From NCBI GenBank assembly GCA_964460785.1, contig CAYWQB010000001.1, positions 308,657 to 372,656 on the forward strand: 64,000 nt of DNA. Reading direction: 5' to 3'. Each line of letters opens with the position of its first letter. Position 1 is the first letter of the stretch. The notes beneath the pieces are model-generated. The model searched no databases. It was given only the letters and a program-made list of their open reading frames with translations, and was not told the DNA's origin. Positions 8,325 to 10,034 of this stretch are shown in pieces. The position numbers were made by a program, and so were the translations under genes. Origin of the DNA: an uncultured bacterium (GTDB taxonomy: Bacteria; Chlamydiota; Chlamydiia; Chlamydiales; CAYWQB01).

Positions 8325-9140
8325 ATGTCCATATTTAATGCTGTCAGTCAATTCTCATATAGCCAATATGTTAATGCCGCAGACCGAGTATCAAAGAGTA
8401 TTGAAAGGCTCTCTACAGGTTTAAAGCGCCCTACTGCTGCCGATGGTGCGGCTCTTGATGTTCTTGCTAGAAACCTAGAAAGAGAGGTTCGAGGCCAACA
8501 AGGGATCAACCAATTCTTACAGACATATGAAAGTTATGCCAATGCGCAAGATAGCTACCTTAAAGAGGTTCAGTCTATCTTAGAAAGAATGTCTGAGCTA
8601 GCTGGTGCTGCTCTTGCAAGTAATGGCTCAGGCCTTGCTAACCTCAACACGGAATTTAGATCTCTTGCAAATGAAATCGTGCGTATCAATAGCACAGCGA
8701 CTTTCAATAGCCGAGGTCTCTTTAGCACCCCTTCTAGCTTCAATGTTCGACTTGGTGTTGATGCTGGAGAAGTTGCGACATTCTCTCAGATTTCACTAGG
8801 ACAAGCTGTTGGTGTTTCCATGGTTGCCCAGTCTGTAAACACGATTGCCAACGCCAGCACAGCGATGAGTAAAATCAACTCCATGATTGATGTGGTCAAT
8901 AGGATGCGCACACAGGTAGGTGCTCATGCAGGGATTGTTGAACGAGCTGTGAATATTTCTATTGAGCAGATTGCAGAAATGGAAAATGCAGCGAGCTCTA
9001 TCCTGAGTATCGATGAGGCTCATGAAACAAGCAAGTACGTACAAGAAAGCCTCTTGCTTGATGGTGCCATTGCAGCTCTAGCTCAGTCCCAGTCTCAAGC
9101 ACAACAGACCTCTGTTCTTGTTGAGAGACTTTTCCTATAA
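8325..9140 (+). CDS. Flagellin-family (flagellin/FlgL N- and C-terminal helical domains) protein, short D0/D1-only form
   Basis: Strong SD (AAGGAGG). The N-terminal IERLSTGLKRPTAADGAAL...LERMSELAG...TATFNSRGLF...FNVRLGVDAGE parallels the flagellin IERLSSGLRINSAKDDAAG...LQRVRELAVQ...TQFNG...IQVGAN. The C-terminal NRMRTQVGAHAGIVERAVN...SSILSIDEAHETSKYVQESLLLDGAIAALAQSQ parallels the flagellin C-terminal domain. Confidence 0.8.
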   Translation: MSIFNAVSQFSYSQYVNAADRVSKSIERLSTGLKRPTAADGAALDVLARNLEREVRGQQGINQFLQTYESYANAQDSYLKEVQSILERMSELAGAALASNGSGLANLNTEFRSLANEIVRINSTATFNSRGLFSTPSSFNVRLGVDAGEVATFSQISLGQAVGVSMVAQSVNTIANASTAMSKINSMIDVVNRMRTQVGAHAGIVERAVNISIEQIAEMENAASSILSIDEAHETSKYVQESLLLDGAIAALAQSQSQAQQTSVLVERLFL

Positions 9141-9160
9141 CAGACAGAAGGTAAGTAGCC

Positions 9161-9197
9161 GGGGCACATAAACACTGATGTGCCCCCTATTTATTTC
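9161..9197 (+). terminator. Putative intrinsic terminator or attenuator between the two flagellin-like genes
   Basis: 9-bp perfect stem GGGGCACAT/ATGTGCCCC (9161-9169 and 9178-9186), an 8-nt loop, then a T-rich tract CTATTTATTTC. Confidence 0.5.
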
Positions 9198-9212
9198 ACT
9201 GGAGGTTGTGCT

Positions 9213-10034
9213 ATGCCTATCTTTTCCAACATTAATCGCTTTGCTTATGTTCACCTTGACAGAAGAACGCAGCAGGTCGCTGATGCTTTAGCCCGCTTAT
9301 CAACGGGTAAAAAGCGCCCTGAAGCAAAAGACGGAGCGGCTCTAGACTCTGTAGCTGGAGTATTAGCTTTTGAGGTCAAGGCAACAGAGGGTCTACAGCA
9401 AGGATTACAGACCTATAATAGCTATGCTTCAACACAAAGCTCTACACTCACAGCAATAGGAACCATTCTTGAGGATATGGCAGAACTTGCTGGAGAGGCT
9501 CTAACAGCCACCTCTTCTGAACGAACAAGCCTACAAGTTGAATATGAGTCCCTATTGAATGATATTACAGGCTATGCCGAAAATGCGACATTCAACAATA
9601 TTGATCTTTTTGGCTCAAATTCAGGATTTAGCATCCGGCTAGGCATTGAGTCTGGTTCCCGGATGGTTCTCAGTGCTATTTCTCTTATCAGTATTGTTGG
9701 AGCTCTCAGCGGTACTCTCTTAAGTGGCACCACAGCCTCCAACGCCAGTGTAGCCCTTGCCGCTCTTTCTAACCAAACGACTGCCCTCAATTATTTACAG
9801 GCAATAGCTGGAAATCATGCCTCAGTGCTTAACCGACGCATAGATATCATGAGCTCAACGATTGCCAATCTGGAAAGTGCTGAAGATGCCATTCTAAATA
9901 TCGATGAAGCATTAGCCACAACAGAGTATGTCAATCAATCACTCTTGCTTGAACAGGCAACAACAGCACTTGCATTAGCACAAGGTCTTTACACCAGCAG
10001 CTCCTCGAGGATCTTGAGTCTACTGACTTCCTAA
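9213..10034 (+). CDS. Flagellin-family protein, second divergent paralog
   Basis: ATG at 9213 is preceded by GGAGG. RLSTGKKRPEAKDGAALD, ILEDMAELAGEAL, ATFNNIDLFG, FSIRLGIESG, and C-terminal NHASVLNRRID...AILNIDEALATTEYVNQSLLLEQATTALALAQ. By eye roughly one third identical to the upstream paralog. Confidence 0.8.
   Translation: MPIFSNINRFAYVHLDRRTQQVADALARLSTGKKRPEAKDGAALDSVAGVLAFEVKATEGLQQGLQTYNSYASTQSSTLTAIGTILEDMAELAGEALTATSSERTSLQVEYESLLNDITGYAENATFNNIDLFGSNSGFSIRLGIESGSRMVLSAISLISIVGALSGTLLSGTTASNASVALAALSNQTTALNYLQAIAGNHASVLNRRIDIMSSTIANLESAEDAILNIDEALATTEYVNQSLLLEQATTALALAQGLYTSSSSRILSLLTS

Follow-up and report, generated by a model that had tools for sequence, protein, structure and literature searches.

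Tandem-duplicated minimal flagellin genes at a conserved locus of an environmental chlamydia

Complete sets of flagellar genes have been published for chlamydiae from marine and sediment habitats (PMC5604735; PMC8242063; PMC9816063), so that the statement "chlamydiae are non-motile", made in the initial annotation of the DNA analyzed here, is outdated. The three single-amplified genomes (SAGs) AB-751-O23, AG-110-M15 and AG-110-P3 were reported to encode jointly every part of a flagellum, extracellular components included (Collingro et al., 2017, PMC5604735). According to reconstructions, the last common ancestor of the chlamydiae was motile and flagellated, and most lineages lost the flagellum later (PMC9816063; PMC8242063). 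In the published view, chlamydial flagellar genes are scattered over several loci and were vertically inherited from this motile ancestor. In other bacteria, flagellin synthesis is controlled through the mRNA leader: in the leaders of Bacillus subtilis hag and Campylobacter jejuni flaA, CsrA binds two GGA sites, of which the first is in a hairpin loop and the other overlaps the Shine-Dalgarno (SD) sequence (PMC13443453, PMC4894983). Here we describe two tandem flagellin genes (ORF1 and ORF2) in a stretch of 64,000 nucleotides, called the window in the following, from contig CAYWQB010000001.1 of an uncultured chlamydia (assembly GCA_964460785.1). We consider it fairly probable, though far from certain, that the pair represents a tandem-duplicated ancestral chlamydial flagellin gene, the products of which are filament subunits of a flagellum encoded elsewhere in the genome.

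Both genes encode genuine minimal flagellins, which consist of the domains D0 and D1 only and are highly divergent. The Pfam domain Flagellin_N (PF00669) was detected with 49.7 bits in ORF1 and 38.0 bits in ORF2 (gathering score 26.6), and the alignments cover profile positions 5-135 and 15-135 of 139, respectively. The best NCBIfam matches of both open reading frames (ORFs) are all flagellins of the small type, with up to 75 bits, and the best 60 matches in a sequence profile search against the PDB are all flagellins. An AlphaFold2 model of ORF1 (predicted local distance difference test score, pLDDT, 77) shows a helix at residues 3-31 (ND0), helices at 42-98 and 102-124 (ND1a/b), a beta-hairpin at 139-153 and a long continuous helix at 174-270 (CD1-CD0). 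The predicted fold keeps the complete D0 and D1 helices in a filament-type conformation. In a Foldseek comparison of this model with the PDB, filament-state minimal flagellins of Roseburia hominis, Kurthia, Leptospira (FlaB), Shewanella (FlaA/B) and Caulobacter (FljK-N) rank at the top, with template modelling (TM) scores of 0.75-0.80 over the whole chain (~270 columns). A D2/D3 insert is absent, as already noted in the initial annotation: both proteins have a length of ~270 aa, and the model contains only the beta-hairpin between ND1 and CD1. Every peptide motif listed in that annotation was found in the two translations. The two proteins are 42% identical over 257 aa (BLASTP, E 1e-59) or 40% identical in a global alignment, which is more than the third that had been estimated by eye.

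A profile of the pair was used for an exhaustive HMMER search over 1.84 billion representatives. This search yielded 12,544 matches, only eight of which have E <= 1e-30. These eight comprise both queries, P0009 with 268 bits and P0010-P0014 with 124-133 bits; some further matches lie at ~100 bits, followed by a continuum of ordinary flagellins. The near group is characterized by a degenerate N-D1 motif, in which LSTGLKRPTAADGAALD or LATGxKxPxAAxGxG replaces the canonical LSSGxRINxAxDDAAGLAIS; the form common to the near matches is LSTGxKxPxAxxGxG, compared to LSSGxRINxAxDDAAG. In a bootstrapped neighbour-joining tree, 14 chlamydial flagellins (near search matches and locus-derived relatives) are monophyletic with 96% support and separate from the ordinary flagellins, with the FlgL outgroup on a very long branch. 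ORF1, ORF2 and P0009 group together with 100%, and ORF1 and ORF2 with 69%. The phylogenetic placement, which the initial annotation had named as a check, thus assigns the pair to a chlamydial flagellin clade. Pfam scores are low in the whole clade (Flagellin_N 38-64 bits, Flagellin_C 14-53 bits) compared to canonical small flagellins (152 and 87-106 bits). Wherever selection on the clade is measurable, it is purifying. Between L181_a262 and L099, the nonsynonymous divergence (dN) is 0 at a synonymous divergence (dS) of 0.065. For ORF1 and P0009 dN is 0.57 with dS saturated, and in the window lineage dN is 0.57-0.68, a comparison which at saturated dS is informative only in that dN lies well below dS.

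The clade is rare, monophyletic and restricted to chlamydiae, and its lineages were sampled from environmental and marine metagenomes. A scan of Joint Genome Institute (JGI) metagenomes returned 80 loci, among which only L098 (58%) and L099 (38%) are clade members; the remaining ones were rejected as ordinary flagellins with 30-36% identity. The JGI metagenome scan with alignment A3 gave no match. Matches from the word index were mostly ordinary flagellins as well, and P0165, P0167 and P0171 are located in normal flagellar clusters of other bacteria. P0003 was rejected as a canonical flagellin of high GC content. A canonical flagellin of 276 aa with the motif RINSAADDAAG is encoded on the high-GC contig L004 (ENA ERZ12289980 NODE_246, positions 10001-10831). 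The composition of L004 is not chlamydial and no flagellar gene was found within 10 kb on either side; its neighbours include genes for DabA, proton antiporter subunits, catalase and an UvrD/PDDEXK (AddAB-like) helicase.

The location of the flagellin gene is conserved. In at least six chlamydial lineages (the window, L085, L090, L098, L181/L183 and L087) it adjoins def/secG/tpiA and/or a gene for a GAF-HD-GYP protein. In L085, which stems from ERR13319378 / ERZ24794637 and encodes P0009, a single copy is located between the P-type ATPase/GAF-HD-GYP genes and def-secG-tpiA-xseA-xseB-dxs-nadK, and the arrangement is otherwise that of the window. L090 (P0013), from JGI 3300041043, shows the same arrangement with the HD-GYP gene inverted but still adjacent. 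L098 has the order flagellin-def-secG-tpiA, and in L087 def lies downstream of the flagellin gene. The Tara Oceans contigs L181/L183 carry three flagellin copies around the same, partly inverted gene block. The exception is L178/SP13 (P0014), where the context is different. Housekeeping proteins of the window are 58-67% identical to those of L085 and 45-56% identical to those of L090 and L181, and these lineages are therefore deeply separated. Since the locus is shared across them, the gene is ancestral here and the pair in the window represents a lineage-specific tandem duplication. The flagellin gene has passed vertically, at a fixed site, through several deep chlamydial lineages from a time before they diverged.

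The initial annotation had stated that no flagellar genes accompany the pair within 64 kb. This agrees with a Pfam scan of essentially every window ORF of >= 120 aa, in which no member of the fli, flg, flh, mot or che families was detected, and with the 10 kb upstream of the window (identical Logan contig), where no flagellar genes were found. The scan revealed housekeeping functions only, like dxs, nadK, proS, gyrA/B, tmk, holB, mgtE, gatA/B, ubiD, an xerC-like gene and others. Flagellar genes are absent near the flagellin gene in every lineage examined, including relatives from a family with published gene sets. A locus free of flagellar genes is the conserved normal state and therefore says little on the presence of a flagellum. 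One clade member, P0014, is located on GCA_002709385.1. This genome is "Waddliaceae bacterium SP13" (TARWAD) of the GTDB family GCA-2709385 (Koestlbacher et al., 2021, PMC8242063), to which the three SAGs mentioned above also belong (PMC8242063). Among the readings offered in the initial annotation, the best fit is that the genes are evidence for a flagellum in the lineage, given the vertically inherited clade, the conserved locus and a member from the family of the flagellated SAGs. The pair most likely marks a flagellum inherited from the motile chlamydial ancestor and is not a stray oddity.

Additional indications come from the region upstream of gene 1. It contains a hairpin with GGA in the loop and, further downstream, ACAAGGAGG, which is a candidate CsrA-type site because its GGA overlaps the SD sequence. 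The hairpin is present in both the minimum free energy and the centroid structure, and ACAAGGAGG is predicted within a small hairpin loop. The window leader thus has two GGA sites, the first within a hairpin loop and the other at the SD sequence. The leader of L085 contains the same element (AUAGAGAUC, stem, ACGGAU loop, stem, then CACAAGGAGGU) with a different yet compensating stem (CUUCCUCA/UGAGGAAG, z = -2.9), and the element has persisted although synonymous sites of window and L085 are saturated. L085 shares CAAGGAGGU with the window, and ACAAGGAGGU is found in L090 as well. Within the clade, 8 of 11 flagellin leaders have a hairpin with GGA in the loop, compared to 7 of 42 among the control leaders taken from these loci (Fisher p = 7.6e-4); the loop sequences include CGGA, ACGGAC, AGGA, AAGGAC and CCAGGAA. 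A search of positions 7900-10300 against Rfam gave no match. The structured leader is conserved and appears to have the architecture of CsrA/FliW-controlled flagellin mRNAs, with a putative binding of CsrA. The reverse complement of the hairpin together with a T-rich run was also reported as terminator-like on the minus strand by a terminator scan. The conserved CGGA loop and the surroundings on the plus strand speak for the leader reading, although the element might serve both strands.

Upstream of the hairpin lies a putative sigma-28-like promoter of gene 1. A matching layout, TTAGGTGA-N11-TCCGAAAA, was found upstream in L098. In 8 of 10 clade genes, a -10-like box of the form TCCGA(n)A(n) precedes the start codon by 83-209 nt. 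The background frequency of this box, a motif chosen post hoc, is 10.8% of random 260-nt windows (binomial p = 7e-7). Between the two genes, an intrinsic-terminator-like hairpin folds with z = -3.0, and none of 200 shuffled sequences folds equally well. No promoter-like site was found between this terminator and gene 2, so that gene 2 is probably expressed by read-through and at a lower level than gene 1. Gene 2 has no GGA-hairpin leader of the gene 1 type and starts right behind the terminator. The features of the locus are listed in Table 1; they include the two adjacent ORFs, the separate strong SD sequences, the intervening terminator and the flanking genes def, tpiA, secG and P-type ATPase, all of which had been named in the initial annotation and were confirmed. 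Public gene calls on identical Logan contigs have the same ORF boundaries, including the start of ORF2, and identical DNA is present in the three SRA runs SRR15635848, SRR15635857 and SRR15635858.

Table 1. Features of the flagellin locus, with positions in the window
Feature	Position	Strand	Remark
P-type ATPase gene	4115-6472	-	flank
GAF + HD-GYP protein gene	6591-8144	+	517 aa; motif HHERIDGKGYP; Pfam GAF/HD_5
Putative sigma-28-like promoter	8231-8257	+	TTAGGTGA (8231-8238), 11-nt spacer, TTCGAAGA (8250-8257)
Leader hairpin UCCCCA-CGGA-UGGGGA	8281-8296	+	GGA in loop (8287-8290); candidate CsrA-type site 1
ACAAGGAGG, SD region of gene 1	8310-8318	+	candidate CsrA-type site 2
SD of gene 1, AAGGAGG	8312-8318	+	read from the sequence
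Flagellin gene 1 (ORF1)	8325-9140	+	271 aa; D0-D1 only; promoter-proximal copy with regulatory leader (putative)
Intrinsic-terminator-like hairpin GGGGCACAU/AUGUGCCCC + U-rich tail	9161-9196	+	intergenic; 9 bp, GC-rich
SD of gene 2, GGAGG	9201-9205	+	read from the sequence; 7 nt ahead of the ATG
Flagellin gene 2 (ORF2)	9213-10034	+	273 aa; ATG start 9213; tandem paralogue of gene 1
def	10039-10590	-	flank; secG and tpiA beyond

A possible course of events can be outlined as follows. A single ancestral chlamydial flagellin gene was duplicated in tandem in this lineage. Gene 1 would be transcribed from the sigma-28-like promoter, and its translation may be gated by a CsrA-type repressor on the GGA hairpin and the GGA-containing SD sequence, analogous to the homeostasis loop of FliW, CsrA and flagellin. 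Gene 2, expressed at a lower level via terminator read-through, would result in major and minor filament subunits. Both proteins would then leave the cell through a flagellar type III apparatus, the genes of which would lie in another part of the genome, and would polymerise to form a flagellar filament, as proposed for marine chlamydiae.

Several observations weigh against a flagellum. No structural, export, motor or chaperone (fliS, fliW) genes and no csrA were seen in ~74 kb, and tblastn searches with CsrA, FliW, FliS, FliD, FliT and FlgK/L/M/N gave no match in 751 kb of chlamydial loci including the window. A flagellar gene set in SP13 itself was not confirmed from the papers, in which family membership alone is documented. 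Most described chlamydiae are devoid of flagellar genes (PMC5826181). Flagellin_C (PF00700) reaches 20.0 bits in ORF1 and 13.6 bits in ORF2, which is below the threshold of 23, in alignments that are nearly end to end (positions 1-81 and 3-78 of 86). Of the two domain models that the initial annotation had suggested for an hmmscan, PF00669 therefore exceeds its gathering score in both ORFs and PF00700 in neither. Other clade members reach 34-53 bits; only the window copies, which are the weakest, and P0017 are below the threshold. The clade members otherwise share an N-terminal MxINNN, whereas the window copies start with MSIFNAV and MPIFSNI. Flagellins of the lineage formed by window and L085 are 29-33% identical to those of L090/L181, while L090 and L181 share 40-43%, although housekeeping identities are about equal in all three comparisons. 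The branch of window and L085 thus evolves faster, which could reflect relaxed or altered constraint after loss of the flagellum or merely a fast lineage. As for the promoter, the -10-like box in the window is TTCGAAGA and not TCCGA, and the full Escherichia coli sigma-28 consensus TAAA-N15-GCCGATAA is matched in the window no better than in shuffled sequences (p = 0.94).

Some of these points would equally be expected if the flagellum was lost and the flagellin gene was kept and duplicated for another purpose. Such orphan flagellins could be exported via the chlamydial injectisome or via those flagellar-export paralogues that were retained (FlhA/FliI/FliF); outside the bacterium they could serve as adhesin, fibre, inclusion-lumen or host-interaction factor or as immune decoy. 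The lack of flagellar genes in ~74 kb and in most chlamydial lineages, the accelerated divergence that is specific to window and L085, the weakest Flagellin_C scores of the clade and the loss of MxINNN all point in this direction. The same holds for the intact and duplicated ORFs with dN well below the saturated dS, which indicate that some function was retained. Flagellin-like genes have also been reported in Cyanobacteria, which are always without a flagellum (PMC7018530). However, the leader retains the typical layout of those flagellin mRNAs in which translation is linked to assembly of the flagellum, the predicted fold has complete D0 and D1 helices of the filament type, and flagellar gene sets are known from the family of clade relatives. 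Surroundings free of flagellar genes are the rule at this locus and carry no weight, and export by the injectisome is without direct evidence. We regard such a repurposing as the main alternative, though rather unlikely, with a chance of little more than one quarter. That the window lineage in particular is without a flagellum and that the ancestral flagellin, maintained, duplicated and evolving faster, serves there as a protein secreted by the injectisome or by cryptic FlhA/FliI/FliF paralogues is a similarly doubtful proposition.

Decay of the genes on the way to loss, with the pair as non-functional relics, would explain the fast divergence and the C-terminal domain below the threshold. Both ORFs are, however, of full length without frameshift or stop and have strong SD sequences and conserved termini. 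The single-copy orthologue of L085 is intact despite the housekeeping identity of only 58-67%, and the leader RNA element is conserved. In addition, dN lies far under the saturated dS and two copies were kept after the duplication, so that decay is improbable. A recent horizontal acquisition of a flagellin cassette might be suspected from the position of the genes apart from any flagellar cluster and from the closest non-chlamydial matches, small flagellins with ~30% identity. Yet the GC content at positions 8001-10000 (0.436) lies within the range of the window (0.41-0.47), mobile-element genes are absent beside the pair, and the common syntenic slot together with the monophyly of the chlamydial clade effectively excludes such a transfer. 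The initial annotation had left open flagellin- or FlgL-type domains, of which the flagellin assignment stands and the FlgL assignment does not: an identity as hook-filament junction protein (FlgL/HAP3), for which weak matches to the equivalog model TIGR02550 (18.1 and 21.5 bits) and a K-R-P...D-G-A-A motif, presumably faintly similar to the N-terminal motif of E. coli FlgL, could be brought forward, is rejected as highly implausible in view of the TIGR02550 cutoff of 127.2 bits, the higher flagellin scores, the PDB matches, the long outgroup branch and a structural rank of only 50 (FlgL of the Salmonella junction complex, TM 0.58 compared to ~0.8 for flagellins).

The organism itself is without close relatives. 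Its GyrB is 63-69% identical to that of more than 80 chlamydial species representatives, with nothing closer, and no relative of ORF1 was found in the species representative genomes of GTDB r232. The window therefore belongs to an environmental chlamydia without a close relative in GTDB r232, and the synteny of tpiA/xseA/xseB/dxs is consistent with a chlamydial origin. Six large ORFs of 323-1165 aa (3045-4118, 18424-19515, 19600-23097, 39650-41746, 55931-58484 and 59563-62025) have no significant Pfam match (E <= 0.01); the only sub-threshold match of the last one is WDCP, with 19.8 bits compared to a cutoff of 25.3. One ORF without Pfam match (363 aa) has a weak homologue with 28% identity at the same position in L085. 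These ORFs may encode lineage-specific chlamydial proteins. About 4-6.5 kb upstream of window position 1 (L184, 3677-6335), genes for a radical-SAM/CofH_C protein, a VitK2_biosynth protein and an UbiE-type methyltransferase follow each other, a row which resembles a section of the futalosine pathway to menaquinone.

The GAF/HD-GYP gene adjoins the flagellin gene in four lineages (window, L085, L090 and L181), even after inversion. Its homologues are annotated as class II cyclic di-GMP phosphodiesterases and are abundant in motile proteobacteria (45-50% identity); one match is named "Waddliaceae bacterium". To our knowledge, pathogenic Chlamydia are not recognised as using cyclic di-GMP signalling. 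A chlamydia-restricted co-distribution of this neighbour was sought, but the family proved to be very widespread, so that the adjacency by itself is no proof of a functional link to the flagellins. On the other side of the pair, ORF2 and def are convergent with only 4 nt between the stop codons (10032-10041) and without a terminator between them, and their transcripts must therefore overlap. At the equivalent junction, L085 has a 43-nt spacer with a hairpin followed by a T-run. In L181 (8778-18655) and L183, nadK-dxs-xseB-xseA is inverted relative to the window. Flagellin copies are located at both ends of this rearranged block, which suggests recombination between the paralogues. Beside the third copy, L181 (19477-20807, plus strand) and L183 (11170-12500) encode a protein of ~600 aa with an MptE-like domain (PF01973, 128.7 bits), which we take to be the domain of Maf-type flagellin glycosyltransferases. 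The protein is thus a candidate for such an enzyme. No homologue of it was seen in the window.

The flagellar gene sets of chlamydiae are a recent and purely genomic claim, and a flagellated chlamydia has not yet been seen. The flagellin clade with its fixed, recognisable locus offers a simple marker for retention or loss of the flagellum across the phylum. The window comes from a high-contiguity genome, with a contig of 793 kb, of a lineage without close relatives and is well suited for a full flagellar inventory. Flagellin genes, locus, N-D1 motif and leader are not described in the main texts of Collingro et al. (2017), Dharamshi et al. (2020) and Koestlbacher et al. (2021), including the supplement of the latter. 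No literature linking FliW to chlamydiae was found in searches that did not include CsrA as a term. There hence seems to be no earlier description of the motif that defines the clade, of the fixed locus or of the CsrA-type leader, while chlamydial flagellar genes themselves were already known. The putative CsrA/FliW-type leader and sigma-28-like promoter constitute a testable prediction, which is apparently new for the Chlamydiota. If the genome inventory turned out to be empty, the pair would clearly exemplify an orphan flagellin that is subject to selection in an obligately intracellular bacterium, with a bearing on the unexplained flagellar-export paralogues of pathogenic Chlamydia. A secreted flagellin, if true, would be a substrate for these long-unexplained paralogues and would have a role other than motility inside a eukaryotic host.

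Among known systems, the FliW-CsrA-flagellin loop of B. subtilis and C. jejuni is similar in its possible working. The two GGA sites of the window leader are arranged in the same way; in contrast to these bacteria, no csrA or fliW was seen in the ~74 kb visible, and the likeness concerns the possible working only, with putative binding. In length (~270 aa) and predicted fold, the proteins correspond to the minimal filament flagellins of Kurthia (6t17), Roseburia hominis (9hpz), Caulobacter (FljK-N), Shewanella (FlaA/B) and spirochaetes (FlaB), but the identity of the window protein to these is only 17-27%. Several flagellin paralogues are common among organisms with minimal flagellins. Unlike canonical small flagellins, the window proteins have Pfam scores of about a third (Flagellin_N 38-50 compared to 152 bits, Flagellin_C 14-20 compared to 87-106 bits), and the RINxAxDDAAG motif is replaced. 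Campylobacter FlaC is a small flagellin homologue which also lacks D2/D3 and could act outside the filament. It is exported through the existing flagellum and coexists with FlaA/FlaB; the window proteins are likewise small and without D2/D3. The window organism has no close relative among the GTDB r232 species representatives. The flagellar gene sets published for chlamydiae of marine and sediment origin (PMC5604735; Dharamshi et al., 2020; PMC8242063) come from the same phylum, with P0014 on a genome of the GTDB family GCA-2709385, and their scattered loci and vertical inheritance agree with the synteny observed here.

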